DNA of 64,000 nt from Candidatus Aminicenantes bacterium (GTDB lineage Bacteria > Acidobacteriota > Aminicenantia > Aminicenantales > Saccharicenantaceae): contig JAPKZD010000022.1 in the NCBI GenBank assembly GCA_026393975.1, forward strand, positions 44,483 to 108,482. The letters run 5' to 3'. Below the pieces are notes generated by a model, which was not told the DNA's origin, searched no databases, and worked only from the letters and a program-made list of their open reading frames with translations. Positions within the stretch are counted from its first letter, which is position 1; the number at the start of each line of letters is the position of its first letter. The translations under genes and the position numbers were made by a program. Positions 26,142 to 38,857 of the stretch are shown here, one piece after another.

Positions 26142-27511
26142 ACTTTGAACTGCTCCGGCCGGAAGTCCATGACCCGGCGGGCCTTGACGGCTTCGTTGGT
26201 CTTTAGCACGGCGACGCAGGATTCGTAGGCCACCTCGGCAGGGCAATTGAGGGGCGTGCCGCGTCGCACGGCGTCGAAAAAGTTCTCGAGGTGGGGCTGG
26301 TGGGCAGGCTTGGCCAGCTCGACCGGAAGAGGCCAGCGCCCGGCCTCGGCCGTCACTCGGACGTCGACGTAGACGTTCTTCGTCGTCGACTTCTGGATGG
26401 GCACGCTCTCGGACAGGAGGAGGCCGGCCTTCGCCAGGGAATTCCATTCCGGGGCATGGGGTTCGCGCATGGCCCAGTTGCCGCGCTGAGGGATCTCGGA
26501 CAGGACGAGCGAGCCGTTCTCGCCCATGAAGGTCTCGTAGAAGCCGCCGTGCTGGGTCGTCGTCTGGACCTGGTAGAAGGCCCGGGACGTTCCTTCCTTC
26601 GTCTCAAACTCGTAGATGGCCATGACATTGTCGTACCACTCCCAGTTCTTGTAGTAGTCGAGGCCGCCGCTGGCCACGACCGACTTGGGAGGCGTGCCGT
26701 GGACCCAGCTGAAGAGGTCGATCTGGTGGGAGCCCAGGTCGACCATCGGGCCGCCGCCGAACTTCTTGAAAAGACGCCAGTTACGGAACTCGGTCATGGA
26801 ACCGTAGCCGTACTTGTCCAGGGTGGCCTGGTCGATGACGTACTTTTCCGGCCAGCCGAGTAGGTCGGCTTTGGCCCGGTTCCACTGGGCGTAAGCGACG
26901 GTCACCCGGCCGAGGAGGCTGTGCTCGCGGATAAGGCGGTTGATGGCGTGGATGTAGCGCGGGTTGGAGCGGCGCTGGTGCCCGATCTGGAGGAGCTTGC
27001 CGGTCTCGCGGGCGGCCAGGACCATGGACCGGGCCTTGTCGAGCGAGTTGGACATCTCTTTTTCGCAGTAGACGTGGAGCCCGGCCCGGAGACAGGCGCC
27101 GGCCTGTTCGGCGTGGACCCAGTCGGGGGTGGCGACGACGGCCGCCTGGAGGCCTTTCTCCGCGGCCAGAAGCTCGCGGTAATCTTCGTAGACGTTGGCG
27201 ACATGGCCGTACTTCTTGAGGTAGTTGCCCGCGTACTGGCGGCTGTAGGACCAGATGTCGCAGATGGCCGCGATGCGGACCGACGGGATGCGCAGCATGG
27301 ACTCGATGAGGACGCGGCCCTGGGCGCCGCAGCCGATGACGGCGACCCGGAGCTCGTCGGCGCTTTTCGCGGCCGCGGGCGCGGCCTGGGATGGCGACTG
27401 GCCGAGGGCCGTCCCGGCCAGGGCGACGCCGAGGCCTGCCGTAGCCGAGGATTTGAGAAAATCGCGACGCGTGATCCGGTCTATCGCCGGCTTTTTTTCG
27501 GATATGCCCAT
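26138..27511 (-). CDS. Tat-exported Gfo/Idh/MocA oxidoreductase
   Basis: TRRDFL; IGCGAQG; TPDWVH; CEKEM variant of EKP; DLGSHQID. Confidence 0.92.
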   Translation of the reverse strand: MGISEKKPAIDRITRRDFLKSSATAGLGVALAGTALGQSPSQAAPAAAKSADELRVAVIGCGAQGRVLIESMLRIPSVRIAAICDIWSYSRQYAGNYLKKYGHVANVYEDYRELLAAEKGLQAAVVATPDWVHAEQAGACLRAGLHVYCEKEMSNSLDKARSMVLAARETGKLLQIGHQRRSNPRYIHAINRLIREHSLLGRVTVAYAQWNRAKADLLGWPEKYVIDQATLDKYGYGSMTEFRNWRLFKKFGGGPMVDLGSHQIDLFSWVHGTPPKSVVASGGLDYYKNWEWYDNVMAIYEFETKEGTSRAFYQVQTTTQHGGFYETFMGENGSLVLSEIPQRGNWAMREPHAPEWNSLAKAGLLLSESVPIQKSTTKNVYVDVRVTAEAGRWPLPVELAKPAHQPHLENFFDAVRRGTPLNCPAEVAYESCVAVLKTNEAVKARRVMDFRPEQFKV

Positions 27512-27515
27512 GAAA

Positions 27516-28556
27516 CTACTCCTGCCTCGGTTGAGGCCGACAGCGGCCGGCCAGGCCTTCGAGCTCCTTGCGGCTCTCCGGAGTGGTGATGAAAACGAGG
27601 ACGTCCTTCTCCCGGAGGACGGTGTCGGCCGGCGGGTTGAAGATGTAGCCCGGGCCGCCCTCGCGCTTGACGGCGACGAGGAGCGCTTCCCGCTTCTCGC
27701 GGATCGTCGTCTCGGCCAGGGTTTTTCCGGCCAGCATGGATCCGGGCTCGACGATGACTTCATCGACGCGGAAGGCCTTGTCCCTTTCCCGAAGCATCAT
27801 GTCGAGGAAGGTCACGGCGGCCGGCCGGACCAACTGGGAGACCATGCGCATGCCCCCGATGAACGTCGGCGAAACGGCGTAATCGGCGCCGGCCCGGACC
27901 ATTTTCTCGTGGGACTTGACGTCGATGCCCTTGGCCACGATGCGGATCTGCGGGTTGAGCTGGCGCGCGGTGACCGTGACGAAGAGGTTGGCCTCGTCGG
28001 TGGGCAGGGAGAGGAGGATGCCGCGGGCCCGCTCGATCCCGGCCTTCTTCAGCACTTCATCGTCGGCCGGGTCGCCTTCGACGAAGAGGAAGGTCGCCGC
28101 GGCCGCGAGCTTATCGATTTTGGCCCGGTCCGGCTCGACGACGACGAAATCCCGCTTCGTCGTGAGGAGCTCCCGGATGATGGTCTGGGCCGTCTCGTCG
28201 GCGCCGCAGACGATGTCGTGGCCTTTGAGCCGACTGATTTCCTTTTCCATCTTGCGCCTCCCCAGGATGCGTTTGAGCTCCCCCTCGACGACGAATGCGG
28301 TGATCGAGGTCACGGCGAAGGCAATCGTCCCCAGGGAGAGGATGATATAGGCCGCGGCGAAGACGCGGGCGGCCGGGTTTCCGCCGAGGTCGTGGGTTTC
28401 GCCGTAGCCGACCGTGCCGACGGTGATGACGGTCATATAGACTGCGTCGAGAAGGGACCACTCGGCGCCGCCGATCGTCTTGAAGCCGGCGACGCCGATG
28501 AGGAAGACGGTGACGAACAGCCCGAGGGAGATGAAGATGCGTTTGCGGCTGTCCAT
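27516..28556 (-). CDS. Potassium channel with TrkA-N/TrkA-C (RCK) domains
   Basis: 2-TM pore with TVGYG filter, then Rossmann-like RCK and TrkA-C. Confidence 0.92.
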   Translation of the reverse strand: MDSRKRIFISLGLFVTVFLIGVAGFKTIGGAEWSLLDAVYMTVITVGTVGYGETHDLGGNPAARVFAAAYIILSLGTIAFAVTSITAFVVEGELKRILGRRKMEKEISRLKGHDIVCGADETAQTIIRELLTTKRDFVVVEPDRAKIDKLAAAATFLFVEGDPADDEVLKKAGIERARGILLSLPTDEANLFVTVTARQLNPQIRIVAKGIDVKSHEKMVRAGADYAVSPTFIGGMRMVSQLVRPAAVTFLDMMLRERDKAFRVDEVIVEPGSMLAGKTLAETTIREKREALLVAVKREGGPGYIFNPPADTVLREKDVLVFITTPESRKELEGLAGRCRPQPRQE

Positions 28557-28580
28557 CGTGTTCCGGCGTCCGTCGCCCCG

Positions 28581-28609
28581 ATTATACGAAAGCGGCGGCG
28601 CTTCCGCAA
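28581..28609 (-). promoter_or_regulatory. sigma70 promoter for K channel-oxidoreductase-cytochrome unit
   Basis: TTGCGG-17 bp-TATAAT on minus strand. Confidence 0.6.
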
Positions 28610-28617
28610 GGCGGCGC

Positions 28618-30237
28618 TCAGCGCTTGAAGAGATGCACGAGCTTCTTCAGGTATTCGAGGACGGACTTCTTGTCGGCGCCCGCTTCGATGTCCCGGGCGG
28701 CCAGGTCCTTGACCTTCCGCAGTGTCTCCAGGTTCGCCCGGTTCCGGCCGCTGATGACCTCGGCGACCGCCTCGGCCAGCTGGGGGTTGCGGGCGAGGAG
28801 CGAGGCCAGGGCCGGGGCCCGGATTTCGAGGAGCTCGGCTTCCTCGTCGACGACCACGGTGGCCGTCCGCGGCAGGCCGGTGAAAAGCGACATTTCGCCG
28901 AAGATACCGCCGCGGCCGACCTCGAACGAAGTCGTATAGGTTTTCCCGCCCTCCTCGTAGACGATCTCGCCCTTGACCTTGCCGCGGGCGACGACGTAGC
29001 AGGCGTCTCCTGTTTCGCCCTGCCGGAAGAGGACCTCCCGGGCGCCGAAACGCACCCGCTCGGATTTCGCCGCCAGGTCGCGGACCTCGGCTTCCGAGAG
29101 GACCGACTGGCCGGCCCTCTCGCCCTCCTGGATGTTAAGGAACGTCGACTTCGAAAAGTCCTGGTAATTCCGTTCCCTGTCCGTGGCGATCTCGGCGATC
29201 CGGTCTTCCGATGGCCGGAGGGCGCGGAGGACGCCCCTCAGCTTGCTCTCGACGGGGACGGAGATCTCGACACCGCGCCGCCGGAGCTTGTGCCAGACGA
29301 GCCGGCCGACCTCTCCGGCGATGGCGGGTCGTTTCCCGTAGTCGGAGATCCAGAATTTCGCGACGTAGGACAATCCGAACTCATCGTAGCTCTGCAGGTA
29401 GGCGGTCGGGGCGGGTTCGGCGAGAACCCCTGTCGTCTCCCTGGCCGCCTCGACTAGCAGTCCTAGAACGACGGCCGGCGGGGCCAGGAAGTCGACCTTG
29501 ACCGGAAGAACGACGGCCGAGGCCCTGTCCGGCAGGGAGAAATTAACGATCGTCTGGGAGGCGACGACGGTGTTGGGGATGACGACGATGTTCGAGGCCC
29601 GGTCCCGGAGCCGCGTTTCCCGCCAGTTCGTGTCCACGACCTGGCCTTCCGTCTCCCCAACCTTGACCCAGTCGCCGCGGCTGAAGGATTTCGTGTAGTG
29701 GAGCGACATCCCGGAGAAGACGTTGCCGAGAACGCCCTGGAGGGCCAGGCCGAGGACGGCCGTCAGAATGGCGGAGCCGGCCAGCAGGGGAGTGATGTTG
29801 AAGCCGAGAAACCCGCGGAGGATGGCCAGGGCGGCCGCGATGTAGACGACGATCAGGAAAAACCCGTGGAGGACGAGGGGGAGGGGAAACGGCCGCCCCT
29901 TTCTCTCGTATCGCATGTGGACGAGGCCGTCGAGGAGCCGGACGAGGAGGAAGATGACGAAAAAGACGAAGGCGGCGTCGACGAACCTGAAAAATTTCGT
30001 CCCCAGCGGAAGGGCGGTCCGGAGAACCGGCAGATTGGCGAGGCCGGCGACGGCCAGGAGAGAAACCGGGAGGAGGAGCCGGGACGGCAGGCCGGGCGCG
30101 CCTTTCCCGCCGGCGGCCGCCGGCCGGACGAAAATCCGGCGGAGCAGAGCCATGACCAAGCCCGCCAGCGCGATAAAGAGGAGAGAGAAGAGGATTTGCC
30201 CGTATAGCGTCAACTCCGGAGAGAAGCTTTTCTCCAT
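28618..30237 (-). CDS. MscS-family channel with C-terminal cyclic-nucleotide-binding domain (bCNG-like)
   Basis: GLALQGVLGNVFSG, FSRGDWV, NWRET, IPN; CNB motifs LFRQGETGD..FGEMSLFTGLPRTATV. Confidence 0.9.
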   Translation of the reverse strand: MEKSFSPELTLYGQILFSLLFIALAGLVMALLRRIFVRPAAAGGKGAPGLPSRLLLPVSLLAVAGLANLPVLRTALPLGTKFFRFVDAAFVFFVIFLLVRLLDGLVHMRYERKGRPFPLPLVLHGFFLIVVYIAAALAILRGFLGFNITPLLAGSAILTAVLGLALQGVLGNVFSGMSLHYTKSFSRGDWVKVGETEGQVVDTNWRETRLRDRASNIVVIPNTVVASQTIVNFSLPDRASAVVLPVKVDFLAPPAVVLGLLVEAARETTGVLAEPAPTAYLQSYDEFGLSYVAKFWISDYGKRPAIAGEVGRLVWHKLRRRGVEISVPVESKLRGVLRALRPSEDRIAEIATDRERNYQDFSKSTFLNIQEGERAGQSVLSEAEVRDLAAKSERVRFGAREVLFRQGETGDACYVVARGKVKGEIVYEEGGKTYTTSFEVGRGGIFGEMSLFTGLPRTATVVVDEEAELLEIRAPALASLLARNPQLAEAVAEVISGRNRANLETLRKVKDLAARDIEAGADKKSVLEYLKKLVHLFKR

Positions 30238-30240
30238 GGG

Positions 30241-31059
30241 TCATTCCTTTCCGAGCTTGAGGCCCTGAGCCGCCGCGAGCGTCGCTGGAAAGTGCCCGCG
30301 TGCTTCCCCCAGGATAAGGTCTACCGCTTCGTCGGTGTGGGCGGGATTGAAATGGGCGAGGACGAGATGCCCGGCTCCGGCCCCGGCGGCGAGGGCCGTC
30401 CCGGCCAGCCAGGTCGAATGCCCCCAGCCTTTTTTCCCGGCTTCATATTCCCCGGGCGTGTACATGGCGTCGCAGACGAGATAATCCGTGCCGCGGGCGA
30501 AGGCGGCCAAGCGTTCGTCGATGCCCGCCTCCGGGTGCTCCGTGTCCGTGGCCAGGACGACGCTCGTCGCGCCGGCATCGAGCCGGTAGGCGACGCTGCC
30601 CTGGGGATGGCGAAGGCGGCAGGCGGAAACCGCGATGCCTCCGGCGAGCGGCCCCGGTTCGAATTTCCGGAATTCTTTCCTGGCCGCCGTCCGGCCGAGC
30701 CCGAGGGGGAAATAAGGGTAGGCCATCAGCCCGGCCAGGGCGCTTTCCGTCTCCCGGGCCCCGGCCGGGGAATGGACGACGAGCGCCGTCCGGGGCGAGA
30801 AGAGAGGCGCGAAATCCGGGAATCCCATGATGTGGTCGAGGTGGAAATGGGTCAGCAGGAGGTCGATACGGATGTCCCCGTTTTCTCCCTCGGCTATGAT
30901 CCGGTCGCCCAGCTCGCGGATACCCGTTCCCGCGTCGATGACGATGTACTCTCCGAGCCCGACCCGGACCGACGAACAGGTCGTGTGCCCGCCGTAGCGG
31001 GCCCAGGCGGCCCCCGGCGCCGGCGCCGTCCCGCGGACTCCCCAGAATTCGAGTTCCAT
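30241..31059 (-). CDS. MBL-fold metallo-hydrolase (putative phosphodiesterase)
   Basis: FWGVRG..YGGHTTC, DAGTG, THFHLDH (HxHxDH), HPQ, TDTE, GWGHST. Confidence 0.88.
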   Translation of the reverse strand: MELEFWGVRGTAPAPGAAWARYGGHTTCSSVRVGLGEYIVIDAGTGIRELGDRIIAEGENGDIRIDLLLTHFHLDHIMGFPDFAPLFSPRTALVVHSPAGARETESALAGLMAYPYFPLGLGRTAARKEFRKFEPGPLAGGIAVSACRLRHPQGSVAYRLDAGATSVVLATDTEHPEAGIDERLAAFARGTDYLVCDAMYTPGEYEAGKKGWGHSTWLAGTALAAGAGAGHLVLAHFNPAHTDEAVDLILGEARGHFPATLAAAQGLKLGKE

Positions 31060-31068
31060 GGCCCTATC

Positions 31069-33180
31069 CTATTTTTTATCCAGCTCGTAGACGCCGTCCC
31101 AGTCCCCGGGCGGGGGCGAGGCGGCCGACTGCCGCGCCCGGCCGGCGTAGACCGTGGCAACGGGGTCGCCGGCGATGGCTTCGAACATGGCTGCGGCCTC
31201 GGAGAAGCGTTGTATCCGGTAGGTTTCGAGGGCCCGACCGAACCGGGCCGCCTTCTCTAATTCCTCCGCTGGGACCGCGCCCTTTTCTCCGATGAGCTCG
31301 AAGACGCGGATGGGCTGTTTCTTTCCGACGACACGGATGACGTCCACTTCCCGGGCCAGGATCTCGTCCCGCACACGCCGCTCCGTTTCCTCGCCGACGA
31401 GGGTCGAAACCCCGTAGATCTTGCCGGCGCTTTCGAGCCGTGAGGCCAGGTTCATCGTATCGCCCATGGCCGTGTAGTCGAAGCGCCGCTCCGAGCCCAT
31501 GTTGCCGACGACGGCCGGGCCCGAGTTGACACCGATCCGCATCCGGACCTCGTGCCCGTAGCGGCCGCGGAAATCCTCGCGGAGCTCGGCCAGCCGTTGC
31601 CGGCAGCGGAGGGCCGCCCGGCAGGCCCGCAGGGCGTGGTCCGGCTGGTCGACGGGCGCGTTCCAGAAAGCGATGATGGCGTCGCCCTCGTACTTGTCGA
31701 GGGTGCCGCCGAGGTCGAGGATGATGTCGGTCATCTCCGAAAGGTAGGCGTTGAGGAGGCCGACGAGGTCCTCGGGCGAAAGTCCTTCGGAGATCGAAGT
31801 GAACCCGGCGACGTCGGAGAAAAAGGCGGTGATCTCCCGCCTCTCGCCGCCGAGCCGGAGGAGGGACGGATCGGCCAGGACGCGGTCGATGACCAGCGGG
31901 CTCAGGTAATAACGGAAGGCGTTCTTGATGAAGCGGCGCTGGCGCCCTTCGATGCCGTAGTTGAGGAGCGAGGCGGCGATGAACGTCATGACGGCGGCGA
32001 AAGCCGGGGCGACAAACTCGGCCCAGAAGCCCGCCCGGACGGCCAGGAGGGAGCCGACCGCGGCCAGGCCCGGCAGGGCCAGACCGAGGGCCGCCAGGTG
32101 CCGGATTTTTTTCAGCATCGTCGTTCCGATGCCGGCGAGGAGGGCCAGGAAGAGGACCGAAATCCAGGTGACGGCCGGCGGAGTTTCACGGACAAACGTC
32201 TTGCCGACGAGGTTGTCGAGGGCCGTGGCCAGGATCTCCATCCCCGGATAGACGCCGCCGAAGGGCGTCGGGCGGAAGTCAAGCAGTCCGGCCGCCGTCG
32301 TCCCGACGATGACGGTCTTGCCGGCGAATTCCCGGGGCTGAACCTGGGGCTCGAGGCCTTCTTCGATGCGGGCCTGGGAATTGATGATCGCGCCGATCGA
32401 GTAGGTTTTATACGTCCCGCTCGGGCCGAAAAAGTGGAGGATCATGTTTCCCGAACGGTCCAAGGGGACTTTGTGGAGGTCCACCCCGGTGGAGATGAAT
32501 TCGGCCATGGCCAGGGGCAAGGCCGGAAGGAGCCAATCCCCGTAGCGAAAGACGAGCGGCAGCCGCCTGTAGACGGAATCACCGTCCGGGACGAACTGGA
32601 CGTTGCCCATCTTCACGGCGGCCGCAGCCAGGATGTCGACCGGCAGGGAAACGGACTTGAGGGCGTGGGCGGCCGGTCCGGGGATTCGGCTCCTGTCCAT
32701 GACCGATTTTTCGAGGAGCCGCGTCTCTCCCTCGTCTTGTTCCCGCTCATCGGCGCTCAGGAAAATGGGCAGGAAGACGTTTCCCGCGCGGGTCATGGCC
32801 TCGGCCAGGAGCCGGTCGTCGTCGACGCCGTAGGTCGAATCCTCCGTCAGTATGAGGTCGAGAAAGACCGCCTTGGCCCCGCCTGCCTTCAGGAAGTCGA
32901 GGACGCCGGCGTAGATCTGCCGCGGCCAGGGCCAGCCGAGGCCCTGCTCTTTTTCATAGACGTCCAGGCTGTACTGGTCGACGGCCATCAGCACGATGTC
33001 TTTGGAGGCCTGTTCCGGGGCGGCGAGAAGATGGAGGCGCGCGTCCCATGACTTCCACTCCAGGGGCGGGAAGACCTTCAGGAGGCCCAGGAGTAAGGTG
33101 AGGGCGAAAACGGCCAAGCCGACCGCCAGGCCTCGAAGAGCTTTCTTGCGGGCCGGAGATTTCGTCTTTTCGTTCGGCAT
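31069..33180 (-). CDS. CHASE2-domain class III adenylate cyclase
   Basis: CHASE2 (WPWPR, DGDSVYRR, PGMEI), TM helices, FSDVAGFT, DKYEGD, YTAMGDTMNLASRLE. Confidence 0.93.
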   Translation of the reverse strand: MPNEKTKSPARKKALRGLAVGLAVFALTLLLGLLKVFPPLEWKSWDARLHLLAAPEQASKDIVLMAVDQYSLDVYEKEQGLGWPWPRQIYAGVLDFLKAGGAKAVFLDLILTEDSTYGVDDDRLLAEAMTRAGNVFLPIFLSADEREQDEGETRLLEKSVMDRSRIPGPAAHALKSVSLPVDILAAAAVKMGNVQFVPDGDSVYRRLPLVFRYGDWLLPALPLAMAEFISTGVDLHKVPLDRSGNMILHFFGPSGTYKTYSIGAIINSQARIEEGLEPQVQPREFAGKTVIVGTTAAGLLDFRPTPFGGVYPGMEILATALDNLVGKTFVRETPPAVTWISVLFLALLAGIGTTMLKKIRHLAALGLALPGLAAVGSLLAVRAGFWAEFVAPAFAAVMTFIAASLLNYGIEGRQRRFIKNAFRYYLSPLVIDRVLADPSLLRLGGERREITAFFSDVAGFTSISEGLSPEDLVGLLNAYLSEMTDIILDLGGTLDKYEGDAIIAFWNAPVDQPDHALRACRAALRCRQRLAELREDFRGRYGHEVRMRIGVNSGPAVVGNMGSERRFDYTAMGDTMNLASRLESAGKIYGVSTLVGEETERRVRDEILAREVDVIRVVGKKQPIRVFELIGEKGAVPAEELEKAARFGRALETYRIQRFSEAAAMFEAIAGDPVATVYAGRARQSAASPPPGDWDGVYELDKK

Positions 33181-33240
33181 GATCCGTTCACATCACCATC
33201 GGGCGCGAAAACGTCGGAGCCCGGCAAGCCTGTGGCCCGG

Positions 33241-34158
33241 TCAACGCAGGTTCTTGACGGCTTCGGCGAACCGGGCCGTCCGGACGTCGAGCCTTGCGGG
33301 CACGGCGCCCAGGGCTGCGGTCTCGGTCTTCACCCTGGCCAGCCGGTCGGCCGGGCTCGGGTGCGTCTTGAACCAGCCCGCCGCCGTGCCGGAAGGCTTG
33401 TGTTCCTCCATGCCCACGAGAAATTCGGCCAGCCCGCCGGGCGAGTAGCCCGTCCGAACGGTGAAGGACAGGGCCAGCTTGTCGGCCTCGTACTCGAACT
33501 TGCGGTCATAGCCCCGCTCGACCAGGGTCTCGACGACGTCGCCGAGGACGCCCTCGAAGATGCCGGTAACCTTGGCCAGTTCCTCGGAGTTGAACTGCCG
33601 GGAGGCCTCGCTGCCGATGACCTTGAAAGCGTCCAGGAGGCGCGACTTCTTGATGGATTGGAGCCCGTGCCGCTCGGCGACGTGGCCGATCTCGTGGGCC
33701 AGGATGGCGGCCAGCGTTTCCTCGTCGCCGCAGCGGTTGACCAGGCCCTTGGTGACGAAGATGAATCCCCCGGGCGCGGCCATGGCGTTGACCTCGTCGG
33801 TGTCGAGGACGAGGAAATGATAGCCCCCGTATGTTTCGGGTCGGTCGGAGTTGTAGGCGAGGACCGTTCCCATGACATTGACGTAGGCGTTCAGGGCCTC
33901 GTTCCGGTAGGGCGTGTACTTCGAGAGGATGAGGGCGGCCGTGGCCCGGCCGATGTAGTATTCCTCTTCTTCGGTGATCTCGGCGAAGGTCGAGCGCACG
34001 GCCTCGGCGGTCCGGACCAGGGACTGGGCGTCCTCCCGGCTGACCTTGCCCGTCGAGGCGATGATGCCCGCGGCGCCCTGCTTGATGGCCTGACAGCCGG
34101 CCAGGGCGAGTGTCGCGGCGAGCGCGGCCGCCGCGAGGGCCTTCGTCCGGGCGCTCAT
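33241..34158 (-). CDS. M48 family zinc metalloprotease lipoprotein
   Basis: Lipobox LAGC; NAMAAPGG; HEIGH; EYEAD; THP. Confidence 0.9.
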   Translation of the reverse strand: MSARTKALAAAALAATLALAGCQAIKQGAAGIIASTGKVSREDAQSLVRTAEAVRSTFAEITEEEEYYIGRATAALILSKYTPYRNEALNAYVNVMGTVLAYNSDRPETYGGYHFLVLDTDEVNAMAAPGGFIFVTKGLVNRCGDEETLAAILAHEIGHVAERHGLQSIKKSRLLDAFKVIGSEASRQFNSEELAKVTGIFEGVLGDVVETLVERGYDRKFEYEADKLALSFTVRTGYSPGGLAEFLVGMEEHKPSGTAAGWFKTHPSPADRLARVKTETAALGAVPARLDVRTARFAEAVKNLR

Positions 34159-34640
34159 CGGGCACCTCCGTATTCGCCGAGCTTGCCCTGTTTCAGGAAG
34201 GCATCGACCTCGGCCGCCGAGGGTTTGACCTTTTCCATAGCGTCGACGGCGGCGAAATCGGCGGCCGCGTTCCCGGCCCGGTACTTGTCCTCGACCTGCT
34301 TGTTGAAGCCCTTGGCGGCCAGGGCGACCTCGCCCGCGGAGGCCTGTGTTTTCATGGTCTTATCCATGGCCAGGAGATCGAGTTTCTTGGTTTCCACGGC
34401 TGTCGAGTGGAGCCACCCGACGACCCCGGCCTTCGTCCTGACCTTGACCCAGCCGTCGCGGGCTTCGAGCTTCTCCATCGTGTCCCCGGCCTTGATGGCG
34501 GCGACCGCGGGAGAGGTGAACTTGGGATCGCGCCTGATGCTTGTCGTCTTGATCTTGACGACGACGGTCTCGGCCAGAAGAAAGACGAAGACGACGAGAA
34601 CCGTCGCGATGAGAAACGTCAACCGAGCGGGCTTTTTCAT
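34155..34640 (-). CDS. Secreted bacterial SH3-domain protein
   Basis: Signal/TM; IRRDP..GD..GWVKVRT..GWL; ATGA-coupled to M48 gene. Confidence 0.8.
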   Translation of the reverse strand: MKKPARLTFLIATVLVVFVFLLAETVVVKIKTTSIRRDPKFTSPAVAAIKAGDTMEKLEARDGWVKVRTKAGVVGWLHSTAVETKKLDLLAMDKTMKTQASAGEVALAAKGFNKQVEDKYRAGNAAADFAAVDAMEKVKPSAAEVDAFLKQGKLGEYGGAR

Positions 34641-34667
34641 CCGAACCTCCTTTACGCGTTGAGTCGT

Positions 34668-34696
34668 ATCATATTACTTCTTCATGTCCCTATCAA
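34668..34696 (-). promoter_or_regulatory. sigma70 promoter for SH3-M48-cyclase cassette
   Basis: TTGATA-17 bp-TATGAT overlapping the upstream gene end; AAGGAGG RBS. Confidence 0.55.
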
Positions 34697-35663
34697 AAGC
34701 CACATTGGACGGCGAGAAGTTCGTCGCGCGGACGAAGTCGAGGGCTTCCTGGGCGCCGAAATCGCGGTCCATGGCGTTGTCCTCCCACTCGACCGAGAGG
34801 GGGCCGTCGTAGCCGACGGCGTTGAGCTCGCGGATGACGGCCTCGAAGTCGACGTCGCCGTGGCCGAGCGAGCGAAAGTTCCAGCCGCGGCGGACGTCGC
34901 CGAAGGGCAGGAACGAACCGAGGATGCCGGCCTTCCCATCGAGGGTCACGGCCACGTCCTTCATGTGGACGTGGTAGATGCGGTCGGCGAACTCGCGGAT
35001 GAAGAGGTGCGGCTCCATGCCCTGCCAGACGAGGTGGCTCGGGTCGAAGTTGAGGCCGAGGGTCAACCGGCAGTTGAAGACGTCGAGCAGGCGCCTCGTC
35101 GTGTAGACGTCGAAGGCGATCTCGGTCGGATGGACCTCGAGGGCGAACTTGACGCCCTGCTCGTCGAACTCGTCGAGGATGGGCGTCCAGAGGCCGAGGA
35201 TCCTCTGGAACCCCGCCTCGACCATCTCCTCGGTCGTCGACGGGAAGGAATACCAGGCCTTCCAGATGGGCGAGCCCATGAACCCGTTGACGACGTAACA
35301 GCCCATGTTGCGGGCGGCCCGGGCCGCGGCCTTCATCTCCTCGACGGCCCACTTGCGCAGGGCTTCCGGTTTGCCTTTGACGACATCGGGGGCGAAACCG
35401 TCGAGCCGGGGGTCGTATTCGTCGCCGACGCACTGGCCGGCCAGGTGCGCGCCGAGGGCCCAGCACTTGAGGCCGTGCTTCTCGAGGACGCGCTTCTTCT
35501 CGCGGACATAGGCCGGATCGGCCGCGGCCTTGCGGACGTCCATGTGGTCGCCCCAGCAGGCGATCTCCAAGCCGTCGTAGCCCCAGGCGCCCGCCTTCTT
35601 GCAGATATCTTCGAAGGGCAGGTCGGCCCACTGGCCGGTGAATAAGGTTACAGGTCTGGCCAT
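34674..35663 (-). CDS. Sugar phosphate isomerase/epimerase (AP_endonuc_2 TIM barrel; possible 3-keto-glycoside lyase)
   Basis: TLFTGQWADL, GYDGLEIACWG, ALEVHP, NFDPSH, HVHMKD, SVEWED. Confidence 0.88.
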   Translation of the reverse strand: MARPVTLFTGQWADLPFEDICKKAGAWGYDGLEIACWGDHMDVRKAAADPAYVREKKRVLEKHGLKCWALGAHLAGQCVGDEYDPRLDGFAPDVVKGKPEALRKWAVEEMKAAARAARNMGCYVVNGFMGSPIWKAWYSFPSTTEEMVEAGFQRILGLWTPILDEFDEQGVKFALEVHPTEIAFDVYTTRRLLDVFNCRLTLGLNFDPSHLVWQGMEPHLFIREFADRIYHVHMKDVAVTLDGKAGILGSFLPFGDVRRGWNFRSLGHGDVDFEAVIRELNAVGYDGPLSVEWEDNAMDRDFGAQEALDFVRATNFSPSNVAFDRDMKK

Positions 35664-35685
35664 AGATCCCTCCTACTTCCTTGAG

Positions 35686-36864
35686 TCATGTCCCCATGTC
35701 CAGCCAAATCGCGCCTTTTGCCGAGCTTTCCACACATTTCTCGATGTATTTGACGCCTTGGACTCCTTCCTCGACGCCGGGGAAGTCGAGGTCGTCGGCC
35801 GTGAGCGCCTCTCCCCGGAGCTTCTTGGCCAGGGCCGTGATGAAGGTCGAGTAGATGTTGGCGAATCCTACGAAATAACCTTCGGGGTGGCCCGACGGAA
35901 GACGTGACAGGCTCTGGGTCCGGGCCGACATCGGGTCGCGGCCGCGGGAGAGCGTTGCGCTCGGCCGGTCAAGGAAGGAGACCCGGGCGGTGTTCGGCGT
36001 TTCCTGGAACCATTCGAACGCGCCTTTGGTCCCGTATATCCGGAGGCGCAGGGCGTTGTCGTGGCCGGGGGCGACCTGGGAGCTCCAGTAAACGCCCCTG
36101 GCCCCGCCCTTGTAGTTGACCATGACCGTGGCGTTGTCGTCGAGGGGCCGGCCGGGGCCGAATTTATCCAGGCGGGCGCAGAGCGATTCGATGACGAGGC
36201 CGGTCATGTGGCCGGCCATGAACGCGATGTGACTGCCGATGTCGCCGACGCAGTTGGAGATCCCGGCGAGCGCCGGGTCGGTCCGCCAGGCGGCCTGTTT
36301 CTGGCCGGTGTCCTCGAGCTTCGTCGCCAGCCACTCCTGCGGGTATTCGCCGTTGACGAAGCGGATCTCGCCGATCTCGCCCCGCGCGATCGAGTCGCGG
36401 ATATGCTTGACCATGGGATAGCCCGAGTAAGCGTAGGTGACGCAGAAGAGAAGGTCCTTCTGGAGGACGAGACGGGCCAGGTCCGCGGCGTCGCGGGAGT
36501 TCGTGGCCAGCGGCTTTTCGCAGACGACGGCGAAGCCGTGCTCGAGGGCCAGCTTGGCTGCGGCGTAATGAGTGCTGTTGGGGGTGACGATGCTGATGAA
36601 GTGCGGCCGGTCCGGGCGTCCCGCCTCTGTCTTGATCATCTCTTCGAAGGTCCGGTAGAGGCGCTCCTGGGGAAGCCCGAGGGTGTCCCCCGTGGTCAGT
36701 GTATTATCGTGGCTTTGGGAGAAGGCGCCGCAGACGAGCTCTGCCTTGCCGTCCATGGCGACGGCCTTGCGGTGGACGTCGCCGATGAAGGCGCCTTGGC
36801 CGCCGCCGATCATGCCGTAGCGGAGCTTCGGCGTTCTTTCTCCCGAGGCCTGTCCTTCGATCAT
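35686..36864 (-). CDS. Cytoplasmic Gfo/Idh/MocA oxidoreductase
   Basis: GMIGGGQGAFIG, TPN..H, CEKP, WRTDP, GDIGSH, GHPEG; no Tat motif. Confidence 0.92.
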   Translation of the reverse strand: MIEGQASGERTPKLRYGMIGGGQGAFIGDVHRKAVAMDGKAELVCGAFSQSHDNTLTTGDTLGLPQERLYRTFEEMIKTEAGRPDRPHFISIVTPNSTHYAAAKLALEHGFAVVCEKPLATNSRDAADLARLVLQKDLLFCVTYAYSGYPMVKHIRDSIARGEIGEIRFVNGEYPQEWLATKLEDTGQKQAAWRTDPALAGISNCVGDIGSHIAFMAGHMTGLVIESLCARLDKFGPGRPLDDNATVMVNYKGGARGVYWSSQVAPGHDNALRLRIYGTKGAFEWFQETPNTARVSFLDRPSATLSRGRDPMSARTQSLSRLPSGHPEGYFVGFANIYSTFITALAKKLRGEALTADDLDFPGVEEGVQGVKYIEKCVESSAKGAIWLDMGT

Positions 36865-36880
36865 GGCCGGCCCACCTTTT

Positions 36881-38857
36881 TTACTTCGCCCCGAGTGCTT
36901 GGCGGATGCGGCCGGCGGCGAGCTTGGCCTCTTCGGCGAGAGCGGCGTCGGATTGGAGCGACTCGGCCGTCTTCAGCGCCGTGACGCAAGGGAAGCGGAC
37001 GAGCATCGCCAGGACGAGCTTTTTTTCCTCCGAACGCGGAGATAGGGATAGGATCTTGAGAAGATCGGCGGCGGCCCCCTCGGGCCCTCGATACGGCTCG
37101 AGGCCGACCATGCGGATGAAGGCGCGGATGGCCAGGACGCGGTGGCTGAGGACGAGCGAGGTCCGGGCGACCTCGTAGACGTCGTCCCGAGCAGCCGGGG
37201 TCGGCCAATCGACGAGGCCGCGGACAGCCGCGTCGACCACGGTCTCGTCCGGGTCCGCGAGGGCGGCCCGGATCTGGGCCAGGCTGGTGTCGTCGCCGAT
37301 CTTGCCCAGGACGCGGAGGAGGTCCGCCTTTTTCTTAGGGTCTTTTTCCGAGGCCAGGAGGTCCTTGACGGCCCCGGCGCGGCTGAGTTCCCTCGGGTTG
37401 GTGCGAGCGACCGCGGCGACGGTGTCCCGCATCGACTCACGGGCGGTTTCGTCTTCGAGGCCGAGAAGCAGGCCGAGGAGGTCGGGAATGTCCGCCGTCC
37501 CGGCGATATCGCGGAGCGCGGCCGCCGCCTTGGCCTTGAGCATAGGCGAAGCGGACTTGACCATGTCCATGAGCGCGGGCTTGGCGCCGGTGATGCGGCG
37601 CTCGCCCGCCGCCTGGACGAGCTCGGCCTTGACCGCGTCGTCGGACGTCTTGGGGATATAGGCCAGGATCGCGGCGTCGACCTCGGCGCCCTTGAGCCGG
37701 GCCAGCGTCTCCCGCGCGGCGTCCTGCTCGGCGCCGGACGCCCTGGCGGCCTTGGTCGACAGGAACGCGACCGACTTCGCGTCGCCGGCCTTGCCGATGG
37801 ACCGGAGCGCGGCCAGTCTCACGTCGAGTGACGCATTTTCCGCGGCCGAGAGGAGGTAAGGGCCGACGACGTCGGCGGGATAGCCGGCGAAGACAGCCAT
37901 GAGCTGGACCCGGGCCTCGACGGGAAGCCGATCGAAAGAATCGGCCACCTTCCCGATCTCCCCCGGCCCGAAATTCGCCGGGACCATGGCGATCGCCGGG
38001 GCGAAGAGGACGGCGTCCTTGCCGGCGAGAGCTTTCAAGATGAGGTCTTTCCCGCCGCCTCCGCCCGCCGCTTCGATCCTCCCCTTGAACGCGGCCTGCC
38101 GCATGACCGGGGGAAGATCCGCGGCGAAGAGCTTGTCGTAAATGGCCGCCGCCCCCGGGTCATTTTCGGCCGCGAGGAGAAGGGCTGATGCCGCTTCGAG
38201 CTTGAGCGGTGGGCCGGCCTTGCCGAGCGTCGCAACGAGCGCGCGGACGGCTTCGGGGCCGCCGACCTTGCCCAGGGCCTTGACGGCGTCCGCGGCCGAC
38301 GAGAGGTCCTTGCCGCCGGCCAGACGCTCGAGCGCCGGGACCGCCGCGGCCGACTTTCGCTCCCCGAGCGAGAAGACGATACCCCGCCGGACGTCGCCCT
38401 GGGATTTGTCCAACGCGGAGATGAGCGCCTGGTCGGCCTCGTTGCCCGGGATCCTCTCGAGAGCGAAGCGGGCCGCGTCCGTCGTCTCCGGCTTGAGGAC
38501 GAGCGCCGCGAGAGCGGGCACCGAATCCGGGCCGCCGATGAGCCGCAGCGCCCGGCAGGCCGCCATCAGCCCGCCCGGCGCGGGCGAGCCCTGGATGAAG
38601 CGGAGCAACCCGGCCGCGGTTTCCCGGCGGGCCTGAGGGTCGTCCTTATGCGAGAAGACATAGGCCCGGAGCCGCGTCAGCGCCCCGACGCCTTGGGCGA
38701 AGTCGTAAGACTGGAGGTCTTTGAGGATGGTCTCGAGCGATTCGGAGGGCGCCCCGGCCGTCGCCGTCTGCGGGCCGGCCGCGGCGGCGGCCGCGATCCC
38801 CAGAAACGCGAAAAGGAGGAGGGCCGAGAACGCGATCTGTTTCTTTCTCTTTATCAT
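36881..38857 (-). CDS. Secreted HEAT/PBS-like repeat protein
   Basis: Signal peptide; repeated AxxALGxIGG/VPAL helices. Confidence 0.85.
   Translation of the reverse strand: MIKRKKQIAFSALLLFAFLGIAAAAAAGPQTATAGAPSESLETILKDLQSYDFAQGVGALTRLRAYVFSHKDDPQARRETAAGLLRFIQGSPAPGGLMAACRALRLIGGPDSVPALAALVLKPETTDAARFALERIPGNEADQALISALDKSQGDVRRGIVFSLGERKSAAAVPALERLAGGKDLSSAADAVKALGKVGGPEAVRALVATLGKAGPPLKLEAASALLLAAENDPGAAAIYDKLFAADLPPVMRQAAFKGRIEAAGGGGGKDLILKALAGKDAVLFAPAIAMVPANFGPGEIGKVADSFDRLPVEARVQLMAVFAGYPADVVGPYLLSAAENASLDVRLAALRSIGKAGDAKSVAFLSTKAARASGAEQDAARETLARLKGAEVDAAILAYIPKTSDDAVKAELVQAAGERRITGAKPALMDMVKSASPMLKAKAAAALRDIAGTADIPDLLGLLLGLEDETARESMRDTVAAVARTNPRELSRAGAVKDLLASEKDPKKKADLLRVLGKIGDDTSLAQIRAALADPDETVVDAAVRGLVDWPTPAARDDVYEVARTSLVLSHRVLAIRAFIRMVGLEPYRGPEGAAADLLKILSLSPRSEEKKLVLAMLVRFPCVTALKTAESLQSDAALAEEAKLAAGRIRQALGAK

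Follow-up and report, generated by a model that had tools for sequence, protein, structure and literature searches.

Gene content and promoters of the locus

The window, i.e., the whole stretch of DNA that was analysed, comprises 64,000 nt of contig JAPKZD010000022.1 (GCA_026393975.1) from an uncultured sediment bacterium, Candidatus Aminicenantes, whose genome is 95% complete. Five adjoining ORFs on its minus strand encode an SH3 protein (34155-34640; 161 amino acids), an M48 lipoprotein (33241-34158; 305 amino acids), a CHASE2 cyclase (31069-33180; 703 amino acids), an MBL protein (30241-31059; 272 amino acids) and an MscS-CNB channel (28618-30237; 539 amino acids). The SH3 and M48 genes overlap by 4 nt, and the following intergenic distances are 60 nt (M48/CHASE2), 9 nt (CHASE2/MBL) and 3 nt (MBL/channel). 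A preliminary description of five tightly packed minus-strand genes with these domains is exact in its coordinates and agrees with both the ORF list and the Pfam annotation; the translations contain the motifs DKYEGD, YTAMGD and HFHLDH. The compact layout recurs elsewhere, with the 4-nt overlap in 46 out of 48 loci and median gaps of 32.5, 14 and 8 nt at the remaining junctions. The G+C content of the cassette (0.653-0.677) lies inside the range of the window (0.607-0.679). Metatranscriptome contigs from four libraries, with a likeness of 90-95%, match pieces of all five genes, and one of them spans the MBL/channel junction, which is a weak hint of expression as carry-over of DNA may also explain such contigs.

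Upstream of the SH3 gene lies a sigma-70-type promoter, TTGATA-17-TATGAT (34668..34696, minus strand; 10 out of 12 matches in the promoter scan), which overlaps the 3' end of an upstream xylose-isomerase-like gene and is followed by an AGGAGG ribosome site 7 nt upstream of the ATG. Over 10.2 kb, the scan returned two sites where 0.9 ± 1.1 are expected, and the match has no significance by itself. The earlier assignment of an own promoter to the cassette is nonetheless supported, because comparison across loci adds to the scan match: among 17 related loci compared, 13 have TTGAC(T/A)-N17-TATGAT at an equal distance upstream of the SH3 gene, while the upstream DNA differs in many of them.

A second promoter-like element, TTGCGG-17-TATAAT (28581..28609, minus strand), is located in the 61-nt spacer that precedes the gene of a two-TM K+ channel with an RCK domain (27516..28556, minus strand; Ion_trans_2 40.4, TrkA_N 98.9 and TrkA_C 53.3 bits). 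The promoter scan did not report this element, which fails the −35 rule of the scanner. It is letter-identical in five loci of the genus and absent from a second clade, in which the spacer is reduced and the start codon of the K+ channel follows 4-5 nt past the MscS-CNB stop. The preliminary description had let the cassette end with the MscS-CNB channel, but an end of the unit at 28618 is improbable: the K+ channel gene lies directly downstream of the cassette in 15 loci from both clades and, given the 4-5-nt junction in one of them, the unit probably extends further. It was not found in five out of five congeners that lack the cassette. In this genus, the K+ channel gene is thus probably the sixth gene of the unit, and the element at 28581-28609 may be an internal promoter.

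Conservation of the gene order

A gene-neighbourhood survey had been set beforehand as the test by which the module could be refuted. The MBL and MscS-CNB genes are conserved beside SH3-M48-CHASE2: 52 of the 80 MBL-anchored loci, all from Aminicenantes-type MAGs, contain the five genes in identical order, one more locus carries frame breaks, and another ten are cut by contig ends yet are consistent with this order. Among 20 loci from relatives across the order, the same arrangement occurs in 15, with four contig-end cuts and one alternative context. The identities to the five proteins of the window co-vary (r = 0.94-0.98; 30 loci). A literature search yielded no published description of this five-gene module. 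Within the genus, the cassette is patchy (8 out of 24 genomes) and occupies a variable site between conserved flanks; a channel-type CNB occurs in 15 of 42 genomes, and 19 of the 42 have no CNB match.

Beyond the order, the SH3-M48-CHASE2 trio is present without MBL or channel in all seven sister-order loci. Judged from these gene orders, the MBL and channel genes are an add-on of one order. The output of the sister-order trio may differ, since neither gene adjoins it there. In other acidobacterial classes, a CHASE2 cyclase, an M48 protein and an MscS-CNB channel are adjacent in three of 20 MscS-CNB loci. For the other 17 of these MscS-CNB genes from elsewhere in the phylum, our query detected no cyclase within about 7 kb, so the link between channel and cyclase is not obligate.

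We regard it as fairly probable that the locus constitutes a self-contained circuit with its own promoter, in which an extracytoplasmic signal would be passed on through cAMP to an ion flux. Three of its steps, namely the action of SH3/M48 on CHASE2, the breakdown of cAMP by the MBL protein and the gating of the channel by cAMP, are proposed from the linkage of the genes, the similarity of folds and the conservation of residues. Such a module gives leads on what CHASE2 sensors detect and on what bCNG-type channels do.

Proposed signal perception and cAMP synthesis

The cyclase matches CHASE2 (178.5 bits) and Guanylate_cyc (75.6 bits) and has a predicted layout of a first TM segment (residues 18-36), a periplasmic CHASE2 domain (37-336), three TM segments (337-406) and a class III domain thereafter. 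Its best solved relative is CyaB of P. aeruginosa (PDB 3R5G), to which the catalytic domain aligns at an E-value of 1.9e-37 (132.5 bits) with the K, T, N and R residues in register, including an identical Lys/Thr pair. D456, K496, D500, T570, N577 and R581 are invariant in 32 out of 32 orthologues. The earlier reading of the Lys and Thr residues (Lys496 and Thr570) as those of an adenylate cyclase is borne out by this alignment and invariance. The residues thus support a receptor adenylate cyclase, which would act as the writer of the circuit by making cAMP. The host genome (95% complete) has one CHASE2 match and two PF00211 matches; the second cyclase is weak and could also feed the channel.

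The SH3 protein (SH3_3; 35.2 bits) carries an SH3b domain (residues 33-82) and a single hydrophobic segment (residues 10-28) as an N-terminal signal or anchor helix. Its C-terminal helical region holds the motif E-V-A-L-A-x-K-G-F-N-K-Q-V-E, the residues of which are invariant in group A2 and kept in relatives of 28-46% identity, and its length is confined to 157-162 amino acids in 50 out of 50 orthologues. The M48 protein (Peptidase_M48; 112.5 bits) has an intact HEXXH motif and an LAGC lipobox with Cys22; across 34 sequences, H155, E156 and H159 do not vary and at least 90% retain C22. Judged by sequence, both proteins are exported and, as the 4-nt overlap couples the two genes, produced at a constant ratio. 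We propose that their target or partner is the CHASE2 domain in the periplasm. The M48 protein probably cleaves a periplasmic regulator, the best candidate being the SH3 protein itself at its invariant C-terminal motif, while the SH3b domain would tether the pair to the cell wall, such that the state of the envelope or wall determines cyclase activity.

Parts of this scheme have precedents in Sinorhizobium-type signalling as described in two reports on S. meliloti. In the first (PMC10659215), control of a membrane sensor depends on an M48 lipoprotein, which carries a wall-binding module, and on its small partner; together they degrade the periplasmic inhibitor of the sensor. This JspA-LppA-ExoR-ExoS/ChvI pathway shares with the present locus the M48 lipoprotein, the peptidoglycan-binding module and the small partner, and the periplasmic proteolysis described there is proposed here. 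However, JspA has a LysM domain on its own chain, whereas the SH3b domain belongs here to a second protein whose translation is coupled to that of the protease; the sensor is a CHASE2 cyclase instead of a histidine kinase; and the locus encodes no ExoR-like inhibitor, with cleavage by the M48 protein being putative. In the second (PMC13001267), the CHASE2 cyclases CyaD1, CyaD2 and CyaK work with the outer-membrane protein NsrA in signal perception. There too, CHASE2 is fused to a class III cyclase and an extracytoplasmic partner, proposed here, is needed. The partners differ, being an SH3 protein and an M48 lipoprotein here and a β-barrel there, as does the reader, which is a channel here and the CRP-type regulator Clr there.

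An alternative that leaves the cAMP part intact, and that we consider unlikely, is that the SH3 and M48 proteins serve the maturation or quality control of the CHASE2 receptor or of the nearby envelope, with the ligand of CHASE2 being something else. The curated models closest to the M48 protein are indeed BepA (82.4 bits) and LoiP (55.4 bits), two proteases of envelope quality control, but these scores are far under the cut-offs of 570 and 365, respectively. The inseparability of the trio in every context seen would suit an assembly factor and an input equally. On the contrary, a dedicated SH3 partner with an invariant length and an exposed motif exceeds the needs of a general chaperone-protease, and the JspA/LppA precedent (PMC10659215) is regulatory.

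Proposed breakdown and read-out of cAMP

The MBL protein is cytoplasmic, matches Lactamase_B_2 (51.1 bits) and contains the HFHLDH motif. Its metal ligands are invariant across 34 sequences, and its clade has an invariant W-G-H-S-T-W block of its own. The AlphaFold2 model (pLDDT 92.3) retrieves YhfI (6KNS) as the top Foldseek hit (E-value 1e-15; TM-score 0.70-0.79), followed by RNase Z (which scores about as high as YhfI), by PhnP and by Apyc1 (7U2S, at rank 47). According to Hobbs et al. (PMC9117128), YhfI of B. subtilis and Apyc1 of phages are MBL-fold cyclic-mononucleotide phosphodiesterases, of which YhfI prefers cAMP/cGMP. The protein shares the fold and the HxHxDH metal site with both, yet differs in an identity of 15-20%, a position outside the Pfam Apyc1 family, a distinct clade and an activity that is putative. 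It fails every curated phosphodiesterase model: against class II PDE (PF02112), 11 of the 34 members give sub-threshold matches only (best E-value 0.031); against Apyc1 (PF23023), one of the 34 does so (E-value 0.18) and none at this locus; and against NF041851 it scores 41.6 bits with a cut-off of 400. The same MBL clade occurs in a second, unrelated cluster together with an FHA-GAF cyclase, a small CNB protein and an unknown protein, and the MBL proteins of this cluster are interspersed among those of the cassette on the tree. Based on the modelled fold, the protein is likely a cAMP phosphodiesterase, which would hydrolyse cAMP and reset the circuit as its eraser.

The channel comprises five predicted TM segments and matches MS_channel_2nd (62.4 bits), MS_channel_3rd (24.8 bits) and cNMP_binding (69.7 bits), with MscK, MscM, YnaI and MscS as solved relatives. 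Across 27 sequences, the phosphate-binding cassette of the channel always has R457, T458 and A459, and E448 is present in at least 90% of them. The channel is the sole PF00027 match in the 95% complete host genome, a census in which only PF00027-type receptors were counted. These residues and the census support the channel as the reader: cAMP would bind its CNB domain and change gating, in either direction. The earlier proposal of an output via the channel rather than transcription fits, because the genome has no second match to this cNMP-binding domain (PF00027). The output would then be a flux of solutes or ions, and the unit of this genus probably also encodes an RCK K+ channel. Related proteins are known as bCNG, the bacterial cyclic-nucleotide-gated MscS-like channels (Caldwell et al. 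2010; Malcolm et al. 2012, via PMC13591265). According to this 2026 review, their overexpression in E. coli gives no protection from hypo-osmotic shock, neither their physiological role nor what the nucleotide does in gating is known, and no structure exists. Unlike these bCNG channels, the present one lies inside a conserved operon with a presumed source and sink of cAMP and the parts of a periplasmic sensor.

Somewhat less probable again than a maturation role for SH3/M48 is that the genes are operon neighbours without a closed circuit, the MBL protein being an RNase Z/PhnP-like hydrolase of another substrate and the channel an MscS gated mainly by tension, whose CNB domain is vestigial or modulatory. 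By sequence, the MBL protein matches RNase Z best (2CBN; E-value 3.2e-8; residues 185-263), ahead of YhfI, the protein is accepted by no curated phosphodiesterase family, and one bCNG member is reportedly tension-gated, with the gating role of the nucleotide given as unknown in the review (PMC13591265). Nonetheless, the RNase Z matches are far under the cut-offs (TIGR02651: 64.2 bits versus 292.95; matched residues 166-265), and the stretches shown cover the C-terminal part only. Moreover, the MBL clade is linked to cyclase and CNB genes in two unrelated cluster types, and 27 sequences with identities of 42-84% conserve the cNMP-contacting Arg and Glu, which speaks against a vestigial CNB domain.

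The closed cAMP circuit also has to be weighed against an anti-phage system of the Pycsar type, in which infection triggers the cyclase, the nucleotide opens a membrane effector, the cell dies or arrests, and the MBL protein guards against self-activation. PADLOC models for PycC match the cyclase domain (best 97.6 bits) and those for PycTIR match the CNB domain, the distribution in the genus is patchy (8/24 and 15/42) at a variable site between conserved flanks, and the MBL fold is related to that of Apyc1. These PADLOC matches represent domain-level homology, however. The cyclase is closer to the adenylate cyclase CyaB (132.5 bits) and has the purine-type Lys/Thr pair, and the SH3, M48 and MBL proteins have no PADLOC match. 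The sensor of the cyclase is predicted to face the periplasm, the unit keeps one gene order across many families of an order, the flanking genes are metabolic, with no defence or mobile-element family in a Pfam scan of 14 flanking ORFs, and 2.9 million viral contigs contain one weak, partial relative of the MBL protein only. The anti-phage option of the preliminary description thus found no support in PADLOC, the viral contigs or the Pfam scan of flanking genes, and we deem it very improbable. What the locus shares with Pycsar is a class III-type cyclase and an effector in which a CNB domain is joined with a part that acts on the membrane; what sets it apart is a periplasmic sensor, purine-type residues, a built-in eraser, vertical inheritance and a metabolic neighbourhood.

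Organization and conservation of the operon

The locus is a real, conserved and coherent operon with a well-supported architecture, and its products would act as writer, eraser and reader of cAMP, a protease/SH3 pair forming the periplasmic front end and a channel the output. Six closely spaced open reading frames (ORFs) lie on the minus strand between positions 27516 and 34696, as delineated by ORF calling, Pfam domains and transmembrane (TM) prediction. The first five (28618-34640) make up the cassette: an SH3 protein (161 aa) whose bacterial SH3 domain is accompanied by a single hydrophobic helix at the N-terminus; an M48 metalloprotease (305 aa) with the lipobox LAGC and an HEXXH motif; a CHASE2 cyclase (703 aa) in which an N-terminal TM helix and the CHASE2 domain precede three TM helices and the class III cyclase domain; an MBL-fold protein (272 aa) with the motif HFHLDH; and an MscS-CNB channel. 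The sixth, behind a 61-nt spacer, encodes a K+ channel (27516-28556; 346 aa) with two TM segments and an RCK domain. The coordinates and domain calls of the preliminary description were correct. Curated NCBIfam models yield sub-threshold matches only for all six proteins, and none of them is therefore a named equivalog.

The assembly that contains the window comprises 25 contigs with a total of 2.95 Mb, at 95% completeness. In a collection of species-representative genomes, the top-ranking relatives of the MBL gene all stem from metagenome-assembled genomes (MAGs) labeled Candidatus Aminicenantes, Aminicenantales or Acidobacteriota, or carrying uninformative labels. Many cassette-bearing third-party MAG records (L042, L043, L050, L051 and others) are titled 'uncultured Eubacteriales bacterium', and their MBL proteins nest among those of Aminicenantes on the tree; by this placement, the titles look wrong.

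Conservation was surveyed with the MBL gene as anchor, fetching 8 to 10 kb on either side for each locus. The order SH3, M48, CHASE2 cyclase, MBL, MscS-CNB on one strand recurs in 15 of the 20 loci sampled from relatives throughout the order, with protein identities in this sample falling as low as 42-50%; four of the remaining loci are cut by a contig end but consistent, and one has a different context. Among the best 80 of 104 MBL relatives, 52 complete cassettes occur, along with one that is complete with frame breaks, 10 that are contig-end-cut but consistent, 16 with another context and an odd one (L112). In 46 of 48 loci, a 4-nt overlap joins the stop of the SH3 gene to the start of the M48 gene; the remaining three junctions have median gaps of 32.5, 14 and 8 nt. 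Across 30 loci, the identities of the five proteins to the window copies co-vary (r = 0.94-0.98), which would be consistent with inheritance as a block but is expected for any vertically inherited genes too.

The promoter proposed earlier at 34668-34696 is backed by comparison. The scan itself returned two sites where 0.9 ± 1.1 are expected, so that the match alone is not significant; the site is supported because the motif before the SH3 gene is conserved across related loci, TTGAC(T/A)-N17-TATGAT followed by AAGGAGG being present in 13 of the 17 printed, often with different DNA upstream. The 17-nt spacer is conserved as well, reading CCTTTT[GA]CC right before the -10 element (window 34668-34696, L041-L048, L065, L090 and L103), and could be a candidate site for a regulator. 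A scan of window positions 26000-37000 against Rfam, at E-values up to 0.1, gave no match. The idea of a mobile island was rejected, as composition is unremarkable and the flanks are metabolic.

Contigs from four metatranscriptome libraries (sediment, lake water) align with 90-95% likeness to pieces of all five genes. Those of run X1 touch 28 out of 30 bins, and one library contig (30125-30285) spans the junction between the MBL and channel genes. These contigs are a weak hint of expression of the cassette, bearing in mind that they come from relatives and may include DNA carry-over; stretches free of RNA-library contigs are evidence of nothing.

Predicted writer, eraser and reader

Among solved structures, the cyclase domain comes closest to CyaB, an adenylate cyclase from Pseudomonas aeruginosa (3R5G; E = 1.9e-37). 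The alignment pairs the LDKYEGD Lys and the YTAMGD Thr with the Lys and Thr of CyaB, positions that are occupied by Glu and Gly in Cya2 (2W01), a guanylate cyclase. D456, K496, D500, T570, N577 and R581 are invariant in all 32 cyclase orthologues; we take the two Asp residues to bind metal, Lys and Thr to specify the substrate, and Asn and Arg to stabilize the transition state. Compared residue by residue with 3R5G, the set of a Lys/Thr-type class III adenylate cyclase is thus complete, and the protein is a predicted CyaB-like adenylate cyclase whose product would be cAMP. CHASE2 is a widespread extracytoplasmic sensor domain. Here it is recognized with 178.5 bits (PF05226, residues 26-349), and TM segments at 18-36, 337-355, 363-381 and 385-406 give the receptor layout, with one TM helix on its N-terminal side and a block of three on the other.

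For the MBL protein, an AlphaFold2 model (pLDDT 92.3) finds its nearest solved fold in Bacillus subtilis YhfI (Foldseek E = 1e-15, TM-score 0.70-0.79). It also resembles RNase Z, BA1088 and PhnP-family structures, with Apyc1 ranking 47th; the top 50 are mostly YhfI, RNase Z, PhnP-family proteins and Apyc1. The metal ligands H71, H73, D75, H76, H151, D172, H214 and H236 are invariant, and by fold, full metal-ligand set and likeness the protein belongs to the RNase Z/PhnP/YhfI branch. According to the accessible part of Hobbs et al. (PMC9117128), YhfI strongly prefers cAMP and cGMP over cCMP and cUMP. Membership of the class II phosphodiesterases, Apyc1 or NF041851 was ruled out, matches remaining below the curated cut-offs. 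For class II (PF02112), the window's protein has no match at E-values up to 10, and 11 of 34 orthologues have a sub-threshold one (best E = 0.031); the Apyc1 profile PF23023 has none at this locus and one among the 34 orthologues (E = 0.18); and NF041851, a model of cyclic-nucleotide-degrading phosphodiesterases, scores 41.6 bits at a cut-off of 400. PF23023 does occur in 31-63% of the members of neighboring Atlas clusters, which is a lead only. The MBL proteins form their own clade with an invariant WGHSTW block.

This clade also takes part in a second type of cNMP cluster, found at four annotated loci (L085/L037, L087, L092) out of 16 cassette-less MBL loci. The MBL gene is accompanied there by genes for an FHA-GAF class III cyclase, a CNB-only protein and a protein of 456-461 aa, arranged divergently in L087 and co-directionally in L092. 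At L087:6319-10819 and L092:4065-8368, the cyclase measures 550-563 aa and the CNB-only protein 125-170 aa. The 456-461-aa protein, whose two copies are 56% identical, has no Pfam match and carries an N-terminal GxGxxG motif of the dinucleotide-binding type. On the tree, second-cluster MBL proteins are interspersed with those of cassettes, for which reason the idea that the MBL proteins in alternative contexts are a separate deep paralogue was rejected. The MBL protein is thereby put forward as a candidate cNMP phosphodiesterase, and the best argument for such a role is its linkage in two different settings.

The channel comprises an MscS-type pore helix and beta domain (PF00924, 62.4 bits; PF21082, 24.8 bits), with MscK, MscM, YnaI and MscS as solved relatives (E = 1e-15 to 1e-10) and conserved GLALQG and TNWRET blocks. 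Its CNB domain spans residues 395-484 (PF00027, 69.7 bits). Across 27 sequences with 42-84% identity, R457, T458 and A459 of the phosphate-binding cassette never vary, and E448 is retained in at least 90%. The genome itself holds one PF00027 match, which is this channel, one CHASE2 domain and two cyclase domains. Within the genus, a channel-type CNB domain is encoded in 15 of 42 genomes and 19 lack any CNB match, several of the latter being over 90% complete. Given the sole PF00027 match and this census, the cassette brings essentially the whole cNMP pathway in this lineage. The visible output of the pathway is the predicted channel rather than a CRP-type regulator. As the channel is the only recognizable cNMP receptor of the genome, the circuit could be rebuilt in Escherichia coli from six genes. 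For the bacterial cyclic-nucleotide-gated MscS-like (bCNG) channels, the available part of a 2026 review (PMC13591265) describes the physiological role, the structure and the effect of the nucleotide as undefined, including the gating of the founding members; PMC4560390 names bCNG in its reference list only.

The other cyclase-domain protein of the genome (327 aa; PF00211, 37.7 bits) is encoded at the end of contig C9 (L160:3468-6633). A gene for a TIR_2-domain protein (28.6 bits) lies approximately 1.3 kb away, and a protein of 197 aa is encoded between the two. No CNB domain is present at this locus, and the cyclase and TIR_2 protein may be a small defence-like pair.

The periplasmic front end and the role of the cassette

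SH3 orthologues are uniform in size (157-162 aa in 50 out of 50), and their most conserved part is the C-terminal stretch TQASAxEVALAGKGFNKQVE and not the SH3 domain. Searched against 1.84 billion representative proteins, the SH3 profile returns 170 at E-values up to 1e-30; most of the 150 matches listed have a length of 150-175 aa and align from end to end. In 30 of these proteins, with 28-46% identity, the residues A108, F112 and E117 do not vary, and L107, G109, K110 and G111 hardly do. In a sample of the phylum, full-length relatives are found inside the class only, and outside the class the SH3 domain alone matches. The AlphaFold2 model has a mean pLDDT of 58.3, too low for a fold search, with the lowest values in the motif region, which gives the impression of an exposed, conditionally ordered segment. 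The M48 protein (PF01435, 112.5 bits) has H155, E156 and H159 invariant in 34 sequences. It was rejected as an equivalog of BepA (82.4 bits, cut-off 570) or LoiP (55.4 bits, cut-off 365), scoring below both curated cut-offs, and the TPR part is absent. Complex prediction for the CHASE2 periplasmic domain, M48 and SH3 proteins scored 0.64, 0.56 and 0.56, compared to 0.66 for a control with an unrelated protein in place of CHASE2, and nothing is concluded from these values.

SH3, M48 and CHASE2 also occur as a trio, with neither MBL nor channel, in seven out of seven loci from two sister families; in one of these (L150), the neighbors are housekeeping genes such as enolase. The five trio-only genomes that were searched encode MscS-CNB homologues (five out of five) and MBL homologues (four out of five) elsewhere in the genome. 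In other acidobacterial classes, the CHASE2 cyclase, M48 and MscS-CNB genes are adjacent in another order in three of 20 MscS-CNB loci; the tally behind this survey stands at 137 of 401 genomes, including two unpublished ones (G106 and G081) that contributed no fetched locus and bear on no other claim. The trio alone in sister families and the arrangement in other classes thus mark the trio as the old core. Going by gene order, its link to MscS-CNB arose or persisted in at least two arrangements. One of these three loci (L193:6986-11483) encodes, in this order, a CHASE2 cyclase of 640 aa, an M48 protein of 406 aa and a shorter MscS-CNB channel of 428 aa. Its cyclase and M48 genes share a 4-nt overlap, the M48 protein has about 130 extra C-terminal residues lacking a Pfam match, and no SH3 gene was detected there with the window-derived query.

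A precedent for an M48 lipoprotein with a small partner in the periplasm is provided by Sinorhizobium meliloti, for which the consulted part of PMC10659215 describes that JspA, an M48 lipoprotein with LysM, and the small lipoprotein LppA jointly lower ExoR, the periplasmic inhibitor of the sensor kinase ExoS. The SH3 motif may serve the coupled M48 protease as its substrate or pseudo-substrate. A tentative reading, which is more probably wrong than right, is that SH3, M48 and CHASE2 form a proteolysis-gated periplasmic sensor of the state of the envelope or cell wall, in which M48 would cut SH3 at EVALAGKGF and a pulse of cAMP would open the MscS-family valve and the K+ channel.

That the cassette is instead an anti-phage defence akin to Pycsar, the pyrimidine cyclase system, appears highly improbable. 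Both share the logic of a cyclase with a CNB effector, but the sensor of the cassette faces the periplasm and its cyclase residues are CyaB-type. Presence within the genus is patchy, yet the cassette is kept across an order, and its flanks are metabolic rather than a defence island. The PADLOC models PycC and PycTIR match at the domain level only, whereas SH3, M48 and MBL have no PADLOC match, and viral contigs yielded one weak MBL relative only.

Should the proteolysis-gated sensor reading be true, the operon would encode a release valve with a chemical trigger that acts ahead of membrane tension or in its place, and it would provide the first defined input pathway of CHASE2 and the first physiological role of bCNG channels. 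The operon joins these two long-standing gaps, the input of CHASE2 and the role of bCNG channels, with all parts encoded together, and the SH3 partner, through its invariant motif, provides a specific candidate for a substrate or ligand. Each part of the cassette is of a known kind. Our literature search found no paper that joins them, with the proviso that the founding bCNG papers may mention neighbors, and the titles and abstract openings of the CHASE2 papers listed describe no SH3/M48 partner. The only CHASE2 signal in the literature consulted concerns S. meliloti cyclases, for which the consulted part of PMC13001267 describes a plant protein sensed via NsrA.

The K+ channel and the variable site

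The K+ channel gene lies 3' of the cassette in 15 loci from two clades, namely the genus of the window and a clade with an approximately 45% identical cassette. In the second clade, its ATG follows the MscS-CNB stop by 4-5 nt; in the window's genus, the spacer contains a conserved TTGCGG-N17-TATAAT. No K+ channel was found in five cassette-less congeners (0/5 at E = 1e-20). The oxidoreductase gene of the flank is retained in all five. Three of the stretches fetched from them (L171, L172, L175) include the xylose-isomerase-like gene as well, and there the two genes are separated by roughly 8 to 11.6 kb of different DNA. The retained flanks and the different DNA between them therefore identify the unit as an accessory block at a variable site, and by gene content this unit comprises six genes in the window's genus. 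In L171 (5476-13445), the site is occupied by genes for a periplasm-protecting pair, a bacterial alpha-2-macroglobulin of 1872 aa and a PBP1C-like protein of 790 aa.

Window positions 23796-27763 contain long overlapping ORF calls. An 883-aa multihaem-cytochrome-like ORF occupies 23796-26447. The listed start of a 541-aa GFO/IDH/MocA-type ORF overlaps the K+ channel gene; since its relatives align from about residue 75, the true start is probably further in.
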